Below are positions 11,633-61,669 of a stretch of 64,000 bases of DNA, piece by piece. Positions within the stretch are counted from its first letter, which is position 1. Each line of letters opens with the position of its first letter. Source of the DNA: Candidatus Omnitrophota bacterium. GTDB taxonomy: Bacteria > Omnitrophota > Gorgyraeia > Zapsychrales > Fredricksoniimonadaceae. The translations under genes were made by a program, and so were the position numbers. The stretch is taken from NCBI GenBank assembly GCA_015233335.1, contig JADFXX010000005.1, positions 65,550-129,549 of the forward strand. Direction: 5' to 3'. Below the pieces are notes generated by a model. It did not search any database. It saw only the letters and a program-made list of their open reading frames with translations, and had not been told where the DNA came from.

Positions 11633-12727
11633 ATGAAAAATGAAGAAATCAGAGTTGCTATTATAGGCTGCGGCCGTATCGCCGGTCATCATTGCCGGTC
11701 GATCAGGGACACAGAAGGTGTAAAGCTCTTGGCGGTTTGTGATCTAATTCAGGAAAAAGCGGCGGCGTATGGCAAGGAATTCAATGTCCCTTATTTCACT
11801 AATTATCGCCAAATGTTGCGGGATTTACCGCAGATCAACACAGTCGCTGTGATTACGCCTTCGGGGATGCATCATGAACATGCCATGGAGATGCTAAGCT
11901 TATATAAAAAGAATATAATTGTAGAAAAGCCGACGTTTATGCGGCCTTCACAACTTAAAGAAGCGTATGATTTGGCTCAAAAATTCGGATTATATGTATT
12001 CCCTGTTTTTCAAAATCGTTATAATCTGGCTGTACAAAGAGTACGGAAAGCTTTAAATAATGAGGAGCTCGGAAAAGTTCGTATCGTGTCTGTTCGTGTG
12101 CGCTGGTGTCGTCCTCAGCGGTATTATGATTTAGCTGCCTGGCGCGGGACTTATGCGCAGGATGGAGGCGCATTGACCAATCAGGGCATTCATCATGTTG
12201 ATCTGATGAGAAATTTAGGCGGGGCTGTTAAGAAAGTCAATGCTGTCATGCGTACGCTAGGCGCTGATATTGAGGTCGAAGACAGCGTTGTTGCGACGGT
12301 AGCTTATGAAAGCGGCGCCATGGGAGTACTGGAAGTGACGACTGCGGCCCGTCCCGATGATTTTGAGGCCTCCATTTCTTTTGTTTGTGAAAAAGGGTTA
12401 GCTCAGATAGGGGGGATCGCAGTCAACGAACTACAGATTTTTACACCCGATCCATCGGCCTGTGCGGCGTTTAGCGAAGACTTTTCGGGGTGTATTTATG
12501 GCAATGGACATAAGGAGATGTACAAGGATATCGGGGCATTTTGGTACAAGGATGTTCCTTATCCGGTTGGGAGAGAAGATTGCTTAAGCACAATTAAGTT
12601 ACTTCATTCTTTTTACCGTGCCGATGAAGAAGGGGCATCGGTGGATGTCGATAGCGACAAAGAATCGAAACGTCTGGGGCGTGCGGATGAGGAATTAGCA
12701 AATCTCTATCGGACGCCGATGATCTAA
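11633..12727 (+). CDS. Gfo/Idh/MocA-family NAD(P)-dependent oxidoreductase
   Basis: 364 aa; N-terminal Rossmann RVAIIGCGRIAGHH and IVEKPT (EKP) motif. Confidence 0.8.
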   Translation: MKNEEIRVAIIGCGRIAGHHCRSIRDTEGVKLLAVCDLIQEKAAAYGKEFNVPYFTNYRQMLRDLPQINTVAVITPSGMHHEHAMEMLSLYKKNIIVEKPTFMRPSQLKEAYDLAQKFGLYVFPVFQNRYNLAVQRVRKALNNEELGKVRIVSVRVRWCRPQRYYDLAAWRGTYAQDGGALTNQGIHHVDLMRNLGGAVKKVNAVMRTLGADIEVEDSVVATVAYESGAMGVLEVTTAARPDDFEASISFVCEKGLAQIGGIAVNELQIFTPDPSACAAFSEDFSGCIYGNGHKEMYKDIGAFWYKDVPYPVGREDCLSTIKLLHSFYRADEEGASVDVDSDKESKRLGRADEELANLYRTPMI

Positions 12728-12741
12728 GGAGATTACATCCA

Positions 12742-13788
12742 GTGAAAAAATTAAAAGTCGGCATTGCAGGTTATGGTGTTGTGGGGAAACGGCGCCGTGA
12801 AGTCATTGATAAGCACGCAGGACTGCAGACCGTGGCTTTATGTGACCGCGTGTTTTCGAGTGACGGAAAATTTGATGACGGAGTCAGGTTCTATACCCAT
12901 TACAAAGAACTGCTCAAGGAAGATCTGGACATTCTTTTTGTTTGTTTGACCAATGATATCGCCGCTCAAGTGACGGTTGCGGGACTGGAACGTGGGCTTC
13001 ATGTCTTTTGCGAAAAACCCCCGGGGAGGGATTTGAATGATATCGCCAGAGTAATAGCCTGTGAAAAGAAACATCCGGGACTGAAGCTCAAATATGGTTT
13101 CAATCACCGTTATCACGATTCGGTTCGGGAGGCGTTGAGGATCATCAAGGCCGGTGAGCTTGGGGCTGTGATCAATATGCGGGGTGTCTACGGAAAATCC
13201 AAGATCATCAGTTTTGATTCAGATTGGCGCACCAAAAGAGCCTTGGCAGGCGGTGGTATTTTATTAGATCAGGGCATCCATATGGTGGACCTGATGCGGC
13301 TCTTTGCCGGGGATTTTACGGATGTTCACAGTTTTGTGTCCAATAGTTACTGGCACCACGATGTGGAAGATAATGCCTATGCCTTGATGCGTACAGCAGA
13401 TGGGGTTGTGGCCATGCTGCACTCTTCGGCAACCCAGTGGCGCCATCGATTTCAATTGGAGATCACGTTGGCTCGCGGCATGATCATTCTCTCCGGCATA
13501 TTGTCCGGTTCAAAAAGTTATGGTGCAGAAACGCTTCTGGTCGCATATGCGGATGATAAAGATGAGGGTGACCCTCGGGAGGTGACGATACGTTATAACC
13601 AAGATAACTCCTGGTGGGATGAAATTTGTGATTTCGCTGATGTGGTTTTAAAGGGCAAGCCTGTGGTGGAGGGTTCTTCGACGGAAGCTTTAGAGACCAT
13701 GCGTTTAGTGTACAGGATCTATTGTGCCGATCCCCAGTGGCGAGATAAATATAAACTTAATGATCAGGCGCCGGATATCATTGCTTAA
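12742..13788 (+). CDS. Gfo/Idh/MocA-family NAD(P)-dependent oxidoreductase (second copy)
   Basis: 348 aa; LKVGIAGYGVVGKRR Rossmann motif and FCEKPP motif; GTG start 9 nt after AAGGAG. Confidence 0.8.
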   Translation: MKKLKVGIAGYGVVGKRRREVIDKHAGLQTVALCDRVFSSDGKFDDGVRFYTHYKELLKEDLDILFVCLTNDIAAQVTVAGLERGLHVFCEKPPGRDLNDIARVIACEKKHPGLKLKYGFNHRYHDSVREALRIIKAGELGAVINMRGVYGKSKIISFDSDWRTKRALAGGGILLDQGIHMVDLMRLFAGDFTDVHSFVSNSYWHHDVEDNAYALMRTADGVVAMLHSSATQWRHRFQLEITLARGMIILSGILSGSKSYGAETLLVAYADDKDEGDPREVTIRYNQDNSWWDEICDFADVVLKGKPVVEGSSTEALETMRLVYRIYCADPQWRDKYKLNDQAPDIIA

Positions 13789-51361: not shown

Positions 51362-51446
51362 AGCATGCTTTTTTCACACTAGCAGGGATGAATAGGTGTT
51401 ATGTATTCGGCACAATCTGGAATTTTCTTGTAAAAAGTCTGCGAGG

Positions 51447-51487
51447 TTTCACGGGAAAAGTAGTATCTGTCCCTACTTTTCGTGAAA
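51447..51487 (+). other. Long intergenic hairpin (15 bp with a 2-nt bulge)
   Basis: TTTCAC-GG-GAAAAGTAG (51447-51463) pairs with CTACTTTTC-GTGAAA (51473-51487) around a 9-nt loop TATCTGTCC; no adjacent U-tract. Confidence 0.45.
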
Positions 51488-51507
51488 TAGAAAATTGCGG
51501 CGGGTGG

Positions 51508-51628
51508 CTCGGAATTGATGTTACGGGGCGGACGGTGACTGCCCCAAAGTCCGATTAAGGTAAATCCCTGTTCTTTGCTGCTTTAACGTCCGCGTTTCAA
51601 TTAGGAGCACCGTAACATCAAGGCCGAG
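51508..51628 (+). repeat. Imperfect-palindrome structured intergenic element, copy A
   Basis: 12-bp stem TTGATGTTACGG (51515-51526) / CCGTAACATCAA (51610-51621), extended by CTCGG (51508-12) / CCGAG (51624-28), encloses an 83-nt interior. It shares the AGGAGCACC 9-mer and a GCGNACGG..CTGC block with the reverse complement of the element at 59423-59547. Confidence 0.6.
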
Positions 51629-51663
51629 ACAGGCCCCGCGGGCAGATTATTTACGGATTAGAT

Positions 51664-58206: not shown

Positions 58207-59403
58207 ATGAGCGGGATTACTGTTTATAAAGATAAATGTACGGGTTGTTCGCTTTGTGCCAAGGCATGTCCTTTTGACGCCATCACGATGGTTGACAAGA
58301 AACCTGTGATTGATTTAGACAAGTGTACCCTGTGCAGTTCCTGTGTAGAGGCCTGCCGCAAGTTTGGGGCCGTCGAAATCATACGCACGACAACCCAAAC
58401 ACCGGATATAGAAAAATACAAAGGGGTTTGGGTTTTTGCGCAACAGAGAAAAGGTGTCGTCCAGCCGGTCACCTACGAATTGCTGGGGAAGGCCCGTGAG
58501 CTTGCGGATAAACTGAAAGTCGATGTGACCTGCGTTCTATTGGGACACAATATTAAAGACAAGGCTCAGGACTTGATTTTCCGCGGGGCCGATAAAGTTT
58601 ATGTGGTGGATCATCCTAAGCTTGAGCATTTGCTGGAAGAGCCGTATGCGCGGATTGTTTCGAATCTTATAAGAAAACACAGGCCCGAGATCTTTTTGTG
58701 TCCGGCCACCAGTGTGGGAAGATCAGTGATCTCGAGAGTTGCGGTCCAGTTACGCGTTGGCCTGACAGCGGATTGCACGGGTTTGGACGTTAATGTGGAT
58801 GAACGATATCTGATGCAAACGCGGCCTGCTTTCGGCGGAAGTATTATGGCTACGATCCTGTCAAAACATCACAGACCGCAACTTGCCACGGTCCGTCACA
58901 AAGTGATGAAAGAAGCAAGTGCAGACCCCTCAAGAAAAGGCGTCATTGAAGTTGTCGAATTTGACAACACCTTTTTTATCTCAAGGACAAAGGTCCTGAA
59001 TGTGGTTGATGAAGTGACCTCAACGGTCAATATCGGCGAAGCCAACATAATCGTCGCGGGCGGACGGGCCATGGGGGGCAAAGAGAATTTTAAAATGCTT
59101 GAAGACTTGGCAAAGGTTTTAAACGGTGCAGTGGGCGCTTCACGTGCCGCTGTTGATGAGGGATGGGTGCCTTATTCCCATCAGGTCGGGCAGACCGGGA
59201 AGACCGTATGTCCGACTATTTACATTGCTTGCGGCATTTCCGGCCAGATCCAGCATCTTGTGGGGATGCAATCCTCGGATGTGATCATCGCGATCAACAG
59301 GGATCCGGCCGCTCCGATTTTTAATGTCGCTAATTACGGGATTGTCGGCGATGTCTTTGAGATCGTGCCCCTTTTAACAAAACGATTTCAAGAAGTTCTA
59401 TAA
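58207..59403 (+). CDS. etfA: Electron transfer flavoprotein alpha subunit with N-terminal 2x[4Fe-4S] ferredoxin domain
   Basis: 398 aa; CTGCSLCAKACP and CTLCSSCVEAC cluster motifs in the first 60 aa, then an EtfA body (IVAGGRAMGG, YIACGISGQIQHLVGM). Confidence 0.9.
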   Translation: MSGITVYKDKCTGCSLCAKACPFDAITMVDKKPVIDLDKCTLCSSCVEACRKFGAVEIIRTTTQTPDIEKYKGVWVFAQQRKGVVQPVTYELLGKARELADKLKVDVTCVLLGHNIKDKAQDLIFRGADKVYVVDHPKLEHLLEEPYARIVSNLIRKHRPEIFLCPATSVGRSVISRVAVQLRVGLTADCTGLDVNVDERYLMQTRPAFGGSIMATILSKHHRPQLATVRHKVMKEASADPSRKGVIEVVEFDNTFFISRTKVLNVVDEVTSTVNIGEANIIVAGGRAMGGKENFKMLEDLAKVLNGAVGASRAAVDEGWVPYSHQVGQTGKTVCPTIYIACGISGQIQHLVGMQSSDVIIAINRDPAAPIFNVANYGIVGDVFEIVPLLTKRFQEVL

Positions 59404-59422
59404 ATACACGAATCGTGAGGTC

Positions 59423-59547
59423 TCATTAGCCTCAACATTAAGGTGCTCCTCAAGCGGGGGCAACCCTGACGGCAGCTTCGATGGTGGTTACCCCTCAACC
59501 GCCCCCATGTGCAGGTGCCGTGCGCGCCTTAATATTGAGGCTAATGA
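59423..59547 (-). repeat. Imperfect-palindrome structured intergenic element, copy B (inverted relative to copy A)
   Basis: 21-position stem TCATTAGCCTCAACATTAAGG (59423-59443) / CCTTAATATTGAGGCTAATGA (59527-59547) with one C/A mismatch, enclosing an 83-nt interior. Its reverse complement aligns without gaps to copy A. Confidence 0.6.
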
Positions 59548-59577
59548 CACTTTGCTTGACAAAAGAAAGATAAATTT

Positions 59578-61243: not shown

Positions 61244-61669
61244 TTAATTGGGGCAATAAGTAGGATGAGCAGGGTAGGCACAGCTGGGGTTATTATTTTT
61301 TACGATCGCGGCGTTTCTTACCGCTAGGACGAAAGTGTTATCCGATGTGTTTGTTGCTGTACAGGTGAATCCTGTAACATTGCTGCAGGTATAATTGAAG
61401 TACGCGTCGGTAATTTGTGTCTTGAGGTTTCCGTTGATATTAGCAAGGGTTGAGCAGTTATTAGGGAAGGTGCCAAAGCAATAAGCACCGTTATTGTAAT
61501 AGAAGGTCTTTTGAGCGCCATAAATTGTTATTAAATTGTTTTGGGCAGCATTGGCCTCTCCTTGCAGGATGTTAGCCGTATAACTGGGGAGAATGATAGC
61601 CGTTAAAACTCCTATAATAATTGTAGCCACTAATATTTCAATTAAGGTAAATCCTTTTTTGCCGATCAT
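61244..61669 (-). CDS. Type IV pilin-like / pseudopilin protein with prepilin N-terminal methylation motif
   Basis: 141 aa; MIGKKGFTLIEILVATIIIGVLTAIILP (G|FTLIE class III signal). The C-terminal half has 6 Cys and several N-x-S/T triplets; GAGAGGTGG RBS. Confidence 0.8.
   Translation of the reverse strand: MIGKKGFTLIEILVATIIIGVLTAIILPSYTANILQGEANAAQNNLITIYGAQKTFYYNNGAYCFGTFPNNCSTLANINGNLKTQITDAYFNYTCSNVTGFTCTATNTSDNTFVLAVRNAAIVKNNNPSCAYPAHPTYCPN

Follow-up and report, generated by a model that had tools for sequence, protein, structure and literature searches.

Two structured intergenic elements in an Omnitrophota genome are probable members of a dispersed family of non-coding hairpin repeats

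The Correia elements (CREE/NEMIS) of Neisseria are 100 to 155 bp long, carry long terminal inverted repeats that form a hairpin, contain no open reading frame (ORF), and occur in many copies. They reside between genes and inside operons, where they are cotranscribed and where the stem is a target of RNase III, and their presence varies among related genomes. Their insertion duplicates a TA target, and the elements have promoter-like ends and an IHF site. The ERIC (or IRU) elements of Enterobacteria are imperfect palindromes that span a unit of ~127 bp, reside in transcribed intergenic regions in either orientation, and are highly conserved across species and patchy at orthologous sites. We know of no enzyme that mobilizes ERIC, nor of ERIC elements outside the gamma-proteobacteria. 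Here we describe two elements, called copies A and B, present in a 64,000-nucleotide stretch of DNA (the window) from a Candidatus Omnitrophota bacterium (GenBank assembly GCA_015233335.1, contig JADFXX010000005.1, positions 65,550 to 129,549 of the forward strand). A and B probably belong to a family, not described before, of non-coding, non-autonomous, dispersed hairpin repeats in Omnitrophota, of the same kind as ERIC, Correia, and REP elements. The family is new, and the kind of element is well known.

An earlier note, prepared from the letters of the window, had placed these elements at 51508-51628 and 59423-59547 and had described each as an interior of exactly 83 nt enclosed by a long closing stem. 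Both elements are real and, with the stem ends chosen there, the layout is correct (interiors at 51527-51609 and 59444-59526), but the true units are longer, extending over 51497-51639 for A and about 59415-59553 for B (Table 1). An inverted-repeat search of the window gives an identical arm-to-arm distance of 77 nt in both copies, which are the two longest inverted repeats of the window and the sole ones with such a stem-and-interior layout. The hand count of roughly half-identical, gap-free interiors also proved accurate: A on the plus strand and B on the minus strand agree at 43 of 83 positions, a value that none of 200,000 shuffles reaches (maximum 40), whereas the opposite relative orientation gives only 20 of 83. 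The conserved block GCGGACGGTGACTGC indeed begins at 51528, and the shared 9-mer AGGAGCACC occurs twice in the 64 kb, at 51603-51611 (plus strand) and at 59442-59450 (minus strand), exactly where it had been reported.

The four double compensatory changes that had been listed for the inner 12 bp of the stem (U-A to C-G, G-C to A-U twice, and C-G to A-U) are likewise present, and the outer stems of A and B differ by two further changes of this type. Predicted folding exceeds that of shuffled sequences for both copies (z = -4.0 for A and z = -6.0 for B). A covariance-model search of the window with filters off returns A and B as its only matches.

Comparison with related genomes reveals that both sites are occupied in only some lineages. 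Five syntenic genomes or contigs retain the same gene order and encode ETF-QO proteins that are 80-84% identical to that of the window. In all five, the ATP-binding cassette (ABC) and TPR genes that flank A overlap or are 9 nt apart, the etfA and ETF-QO genes that flank B overlap or are 41-75 nt apart, and a covariance-model search of ~100 kb of these loci finds no copy. Because the relatives have no room for the element at either site, A and B are lineage-specific insertions. The window preserves both the end of the ABC gene (final codons FYINFK and the stop codon) and the first codons of the TPR gene, and thus the extra DNA is located precisely between stop codon and start codon.

The same type of polymorphism is present between mraY and murD: the element is there at a locus designated L155 and is missing from the related genome GCA_015233675.1 (locus L161). 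The two spacers are homologous up to "...AATT", and this homology stops exactly at the first base of the element. Within the population that carries it at this junction, the element is found in six of six contigs. The L161 segment that occupies the place of the element was considered as a diverged copy, an identity that was rejected given that the segment is unstructured (z = +0.4) and does not match the model.

A search with a covariance model, as the earlier note had recommended, uncovered additional copies in metagenome contigs. A scan of these contigs with a pattern of 22 specified bases yielded 25 loci for covariance-model screening, of which 10 are confirmed with scores of 80-124 bits (106-171 bits with a rebuilt model); the rest score at chance level. 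The confirmed loci are L152, L153, L143, L133, L146, L135, L150 (equivalent to L145), L144, and L154, and a later look-up added six more contigs of the L152 locus, for 16 contigs in all. Further distinct copies number eight, at eight further loci on Omnitrophota contigs, and all are intergenic. The samples are mostly peat or bog metagenomes, and the hosts are Omnitrophota; the MurD protein encoded beside the L152 copy has only Omnitrophota relatives. The ETF-QO protein of the window is 100% identical to a database protein assigned by name to the same phylum. When a looser pattern (17 specified bases with a 21-wide gap) was applied to genome contigs, it gave 120 chance loci from unrelated phyla, and none of the 100 that were screened (L001-L100) fits the model. 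No family match is present among viral contigs, plasmids, and phages.

The genes that flank the element differ from locus to locus. They are mraY and murD (L152/L155), cbiM and the gene for a PDGLE-domain, cbiN-like protein (L153), two T2SSE ATPase genes (L143), msrA and a methylase gene (L146), and genes for an acyl-CoA synthetase and a phosphorylase of the PNP type (L150/L145). The L154 copy lies downstream of an AcrB-type pump, whereas L144 is adjacent to a PCuAC chaperone gene and L133 to a TPR gene. With the ABC-TPR and etfA-ETF-QO junctions of the window, this makes ten contexts that are unrelated in function, and the element is the sole sequence shared by contigs of different loci. The same 123 nt of the element occur in the L144 and L154 contigs next to different genes, and each of the two contigs ends within the element. 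This arrangement indicates that the element is multi-copy within that population and is the signature of a repeat that breaks assemblies.

Copies at non-orthologous sites are 75-94% identical to each other, compared with 70-85% for conserved coding genes of these related genomes, the spacers of which cannot be aligned. Most copies are B-like, and B itself is 88% identical to the copies at L152 and L153. The family unit measures ~140-145 nt, has arms of 27-35 nt, and is bounded by the termini 5'-GCGGGTG(K)CC ... GGAC(R)GGCCCCGC-3' (also written GCGGGTGKCC...GGACRGGCCCCGC). These ends are present in the full-length copies except L150 and in A, where they read GCGGCGGGTGG...CAGGCCCCGC, and the termini of A are also found in the metagenome copy at L152. 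Since the termini are kept in A and lost in B, A is intact and belongs to a divergent subfamily, and B is a B-type copy with eroded ends. B is an older copy and has the opposite orientation, whereas A is oriented with its operon. The copies at L153, L146, and L150, as well as B, start 4 to about 20 nt past a stop codon. For most copies, the next start codon lies about 13-26 nt past the end. An estimate of host divergence between L153 and the window was dropped because the two share a single gene, probably a paralogue, at 33% identity.

The RNAalifold consensus for nine distinct sequences is a long rod that comprises, from the outside inward, a 5-bp outer helix, a conserved 3-nt bulge, a 25-pair stem, and internal loops wherein the blocks GCG.ACGG...CTGC, GCTGC, and AGGAGCACC are invariant. 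The sequence of the ~30-bp closing stem drifts while its pairing is kept: its 25 pairs are 97% paired in the nine sequences, and 11 of them exhibit double changes. An interior 7-bp helix (alignment columns 52-58/97-103) is 89% paired and has three double changes. No other interior helix is supported by covariation among the nine sequences, and ACGGCA may form an alternative pairing or a pseudoknot with UGCYGU in the interior. For the structure as a whole, none of 500 shuffles matches the observed pairing or covariation, and sliding the partners by 1-3 columns reduces pairing from 95% to 33-49%. The persistence of stem covariation across nine sequences bears out the proposal, originally made from A and B, that selection acts on the hairpin structure and that the copies do not reflect a recent duplication. 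Taken alone, stem covariation does not distinguish an RNA from a single-stranded DNA or from co-evolving terminal inverted repeats.

The two strands of the element are not equivalent. The whole alignment contains 40 G·U cells and 3 A·C cells; the counts for the closing stem, where the register is independent of the strand chosen, are 12 and 1. The model strand also has the lower folding energy in seven of nine copies. Among the eight copies between co-directional genes, seven are in the sense orientation (A, L152, L153, L143, L146, L150, and L154) and B runs against its genes; L133 and L144 adjoin genes on the other strand. We argue from these asymmetries in wobble pairing, folding, and orientation that a single strand, either a transcript or single-stranded DNA, is the selected form, and they count against a cruciform or a double-stranded protein site. 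Conservation of pairing over sequence, together with tolerance of wobble pairs on one strand only, leads to the same folded single strand. The evidence from strand asymmetry is modest.

The element matches none of the classes of RNA or coding sequence that were searched, in line with the remark in the earlier note that it could not be matched to a known RNA family. Rfam 15 gives no match for the window at gathering thresholds and, at permissive thresholds, none for A (E <= 10) or for three B-type copies (E <= 1); a tRNA/tmRNA search of the window also returns nothing. No sigma-70-like promoter corresponds to the element. A search for U-tract terminators finds only a 6-bp stem inside B that lacks a real T-run, in keeping with the view that the element is not a simple terminator. 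There is no ORF conserved across copies, and a coding or RPE-like element was rejected because some copies are open, others have stops in every frame, and a start codon is absent. A hammerhead ribozyme was also considered, as CUGAGGA in B-type copies resembles CUGANGA, and was discarded because A has AUUAGGA, GAAA is absent from the required junction, and Rfam gives no match. Full-text literature searches reveal no published interspersed repeats in Omnitrophota and no report of the diagnostic sequences of the element.

Among described systems, Correia elements are similar in size, in their paired inverted repeats, in the lack of an ORF, in their intergenic and operon sites, and in their variable presence. 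In the Omnitrophota family, however, no duplication or promoter-like site is seen and blocks of the interior are conserved rather than the ends only. The two have no sequence similarity and come from different phyla. ERIC elements are likewise imperfect palindromes found in either orientation and patchy at orthologous sites, but there is again no sequence similarity, and the ~83-nt interior of the Omnitrophota elements is not a simple continuation of the palindrome.

The REP/REPIN repeats, which RAYT (Y1 HUH) transposases mobilize, and the PATEs derived from IS200/IS605 are hairpin-defined repeats recognized as folded single strands. A REP/REPIN unit consists of REP palindromes of 20-40 nt that bear a GTAG or CGTC head and form an inverted doublet. 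The family is like REP/REPIN in that it has no target-site duplication, is strand-asymmetric, and is located just past stop codons. It differs from them in that the arms of A and B have no GTAG/CGTC head (a GTAG-headed motif is found in the outer flank only, in some other genomes), the arm of A is not self-complementary, no Y1 gene is present in the window, and A and B are opposite in orientation within one replichore. GC skew is positive throughout the window. Of the two options originally offered, an intergenic palindrome like ERIC, REP, or Correia elements is favored, and a gene-specific cis-regulatory RNA is excluded.

The element is probably mobile, or was so until recently, and it lands in the short spacers that separate the stop codon from the ribosome-binding site of unrelated genes. 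In the mechanism that we propose, it would be mobilized in trans by an enzyme encoded elsewhere, without target-site duplication, and this process may be guided by the hairpin as with Y1 HUH enzymes. The folded strand under selection could be single-stranded DNA during mobilization, as for REP/REPIN and IS200/IS605-type ends, or else the transcript. An inserted element, lacking its own promoter and U-tract terminator, would presumably be cotranscribed with the operon. If so, its ~30-bp stem may form a stable intercistronic stem-loop that, by analogy with Correia, ERIC, and REP elements, would be an RNase III substrate or a barrier to exonucleases.

Several points weigh against a non-autonomous repeat family of this kind. 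We infer transposition itself from presence and absence between species. Neither a mobilizing enzyme nor an autonomous partner was recognized in the window or in the examined parts of the other loci, and the examined loci include no longer element that shares the family termini. Eleven flanks are the basis for the right-hand boundary and for the finding that no very short duplication is present. With regard to the selected strand, the G·U excess is partly inherited, as 7 of the 12 cells in the stem derive from a single position, and the interior G·U count is biased because the structure was predicted on the model strand. The orientation bias of seven in eight is marginally significant and is confounded with replication direction. 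Finally, the unpaired blocks are conserved between A and B types more than a purely selfish repeat requires.

Of the alternatives, a classical MITE (miniature inverted-repeat transposable element) fares best, although we consider it unlikely. The elements would then be deletion derivatives of an insertion sequence with a DDE transposase, the stem would consist of its terminal inverted repeats, and the "compensatory" changes would arise as both ends co-evolve with the transposase. The family is like MITEs in that its unit is short (under ~500 bp), non-coding, non-autonomous, multi-copy, and intergenic, has long terminal inverted repeats whose outermost bases are conserved, lacks an ORF, and shows insertion polymorphism. 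Moreover, in some genomes the unit is nested in a second inverted repeat, GGTAGTGTCAAAAG...CTTTTGACAGAACC, which looks like nested MITEs. However, a direct repeat flanks none of 11 copies: no repeat is common to the eleven flanks, and L135 alone shows GTCA, which is possibly fortuitous.

Pairing is also continuous over ~30 bp, the inner stem differs between subfamilies yet stays complementary, and the 12-to-1 ratio of G·U to A·C in the stem is unexpected for a double-stranded protein-binding site. A cognate insertion sequence is absent from the window and the loci examined, and none of the 58 window ORFs contains a transposase or recombinase domain. Thus, neither of the two features that, according to the earlier note, would make this an ordinary MITE (target-site duplication and a linked transposase) is found in the eleven flanks or the window ORFs. 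A MITE of the DDE type would require a very short duplication and a distant partner.

It is less probable still that the element is a structured RNA selected by the host and copied to many operons, with spread being secondary. Such an RNA might act as a processing or stability element, as a protein-binding RNA, or as a new small self-cleaving ribozyme. This would account for the unpaired blocks that are invariant between subfamilies differing at ~50% of interior positions, for covarying stems, for wobble pairs and better folding that are specific to the model strand, for the sense orientation of most copies inside essential operons, and for sequence conservation that equals or exceeds that of coding genes. 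Speaking against it, close relatives lack the element at the same operon junctions, B is antisense to its operon and has decayed ends, and L133 and L144 lie beside genes on the opposite strand. In addition, Rfam, with its ribozyme families, offers no match even at E <= 10, and interior structure beyond one helix has no covariation support in nine sequences.

A related and comparably doubtful view is that of a mobile RNA module, spread among Omnitrophota, with a functional core under selection such as a self-cleaving ribozyme, a processing site, or a protein-binding site. It is suggested by the invariant unpaired blocks, the one-strand wobble pairs, and the bias toward sense orientation. If this view were true, the module would provide a defined point of intercistronic cleavage or stability in compact operons such as mraY-murD and cbiM-cbiN.

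Very little speaks for a gene-specific cis-regulatory RNA (such as a riboswitch, attenuator, or leader) or a gene for a trans-acting small RNA that is transcribed on its own, for which intergenic position, strong predicted structure, and conserved blocks could be cited. The ten contexts share no gene function, A and B are opposite in orientation relative to co-directional genes, and orthologous operons exist that lack the element. Since flanks are unrelated between copies and the element is missing from syntenic relatives, a gene-specific cis-regulator is excluded, and neither A nor B is a gene-specific regulator of its neighbors. A small RNA gene finds no corresponding promoter, U-tract terminator, or Rfam match, and the tight spacing of the copies (for several, 4 to about 20 nt from a stop codon to the start of the copy; for most, about 13-26 nt from its end to the next start codon) also argues against this class.

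The least credible proposals are a chance palindrome, which is ruled out by the folding z-scores, the interior shuffles, the copies recovered by covariance model, and the stem covariation, and an integron attC-type recombination site, sites that bear R'' (RYYYAAC) and R' (GTTRRRY) boxes at their ends and reside in cassette arrays next to intI: a length of about 140 nt and an imperfect-palindrome architecture would fit, and the B-type stem strand CCTCAAC ... ATTGAGG is loosely like R''/R' boxes, but the expected GTTRRRY box is ATTGAGG in seven of nine copies, A has no boxes, and the copies are single, kilobases apart, and inside core operons, with no cassette arrays and no integrase nearby.

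Hence a dispersed family of hairpin repeats is the reading that we favor, and it bears on the study of Omnitrophota, an uncultured and largely host-dependent phylum with very compact genomes. The family explains contig breaks in metagenome assemblies from this phylum and can serve as a marker to type strains and to follow exchange between lineages. It also points to operon transcripts that would contain a ~30-bp double-stranded stem, which may uncouple the expression of neighboring cistrons. With no duplication, conserved pairing, strand asymmetry, and conserved loops, the family is also a reasonable candidate for HUH-type mobilization or for a functional RNA.

Table 1. Copies A and B and the spacers that hold them, in coordinates of the window.
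Feature	Coordinates	Strand	Details
Copy A, full-length divergent "A-type" member	51497..51639	+	Termini GCGGCGGGTGG...GACAGGCCCCGC; 114 bits, model R2
Copy A, closing stem 5' arm	51497..51529	+	Inverted repeat I1, 33 nt, 79% complementary
Copy A, interior of 83 nt	51527..51609	+	Blocks GCG.ACGG...CTGC, CG.TT.AGG, GCTGC, AGGAGCA, conserved family-wide
Copy A, closing stem 3' arm	51607..51639	+	33 nt, pairs with 51497..51529
Copy B, "B-type" member	about 59415..59553	-	Outer termini decayed; 135 bits, model R2
Copy B, closing stem arm (3' arm, model strand)	59420..59446		Inverted repeat I2, 27 nt, 89% complementary
Copy B, interior of 83 nt	59444..59526	-	Aligns to A without gaps
Copy B, other closing stem arm (5' arm, model strand)	59524..59550		27 nt, pairs with 59420..59446
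Spacer holding A, 302 nt, lineage-specific	51362..51663	+	Between opp-like ABC ATPase gene and TPR membrane-protein gene
Spacer holding B, 174 nt, lineage-specific	59404..59577	+	Between etfA and ETF-QO gene

The window is very compact. It is tiled by 58 stop-to-stop ORF segments, 54 on the plus strand and four on the minus strand, and has about five gaps that exceed 150 nt (one at its start), two of which are occupied by A and B. The TPR membrane protein encoded beside A is 722 amino acids (aa) long, and the surroundings of B are an acyl-CoA dehydrogenase/etfBA/ETF-QO cluster. Just 5' of A, in the same spacer, a separate hairpin of 15-17 bp (TTTCACGGGAAAAGTAG ... CTACTTTTCGTGAAA) spans 51447-51487. 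An independent perfect 14-bp hairpin (9708-9721/9772-9785) is located upstream of the copy in the mraY-murD spacer of L155. Comparison of the 135 nt upstream of A with this spacer reveals no convincing homology except in the last few bases.

In some genomes the element is surrounded by an outer inverted pair, with GGTAGTGTCAAAAGTTTTATGAAAA upstream and GTCATCAGGAAGCGAACTTTTGACAGAACC downstream, forming a composite of ~210 nt. Sites with this pair are L143:1363-1571, L144:1160-1191, L154:124-159, L135:1200-1267, and L133:1414-1448, and at L135 the downstream motif is followed by another copy of the upstream motif. The motif, which is absent from the window, may represent a second family of repeats or a hairpin that is preferred as a target. 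On the L133 contig, positions 14-96 form a long hairpin that is unrelated to the element and has weak matches to microRNA-precursor models, which suggests that other hairpin repeats exist in these genomes.

The related Omnitrophota genome L126 encodes a 225-aa Y1_Tnp (RAYT/IS200-like) protein just downstream of ETF-QO (11640-12760). REP-like palindromes AAAGTCGTGCCTGTCACGACTTT border the gene, with a single copy on one side and two on the other, and a direct duplication that measures at least about 85 nt (11650-11735 and 12675-12760) encloses the whole insert. A link between this locus and the family was rejected because there is no sequence similarity. The same genome has, between its ABC ATPase and TPR genes (460-2250), an extra ORF of 596 aa without a Pfam match. 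This ORF partly resembles the TPR gene of the window in a nucleotide BLAST comparison, suggesting that a tandem duplication took place at the same junction that holds A in the window.

Most of the window (1-47800) is a long, nearly gap-free run of plus-strand genes. It begins with a cluster for polysaccharide or glycan biosynthesis (epimerases, many methyltransferases and glycosyltransferases, a Wzy-like protein, asparagine synthase, and a heparinase-like protein), continues with pgk, tpiA, and secG, and then reaches the start of an opp-type transporter operon. Farther along, the EtfA protein encoded at 58207-59403 is 398 aa long and includes an N-terminal 2x[4Fe-4S] ferredoxin domain, as does its counterpart in the relative L128, whereas the annotated EtfA of the syntenic relatives L121, L122, and L126 is 334 aa long and has no such domain. 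Directly downstream of ETF-QO, on the minus strand, a pilin-like gene (61244-61669) encodes a ComP_DUS domain (a receptor for DNA uptake sequences) as well as an N-terminal methylation motif. A similar N_methyl gene occupies the same place in L128 and L129 and is located further downstream in L122 and L126.

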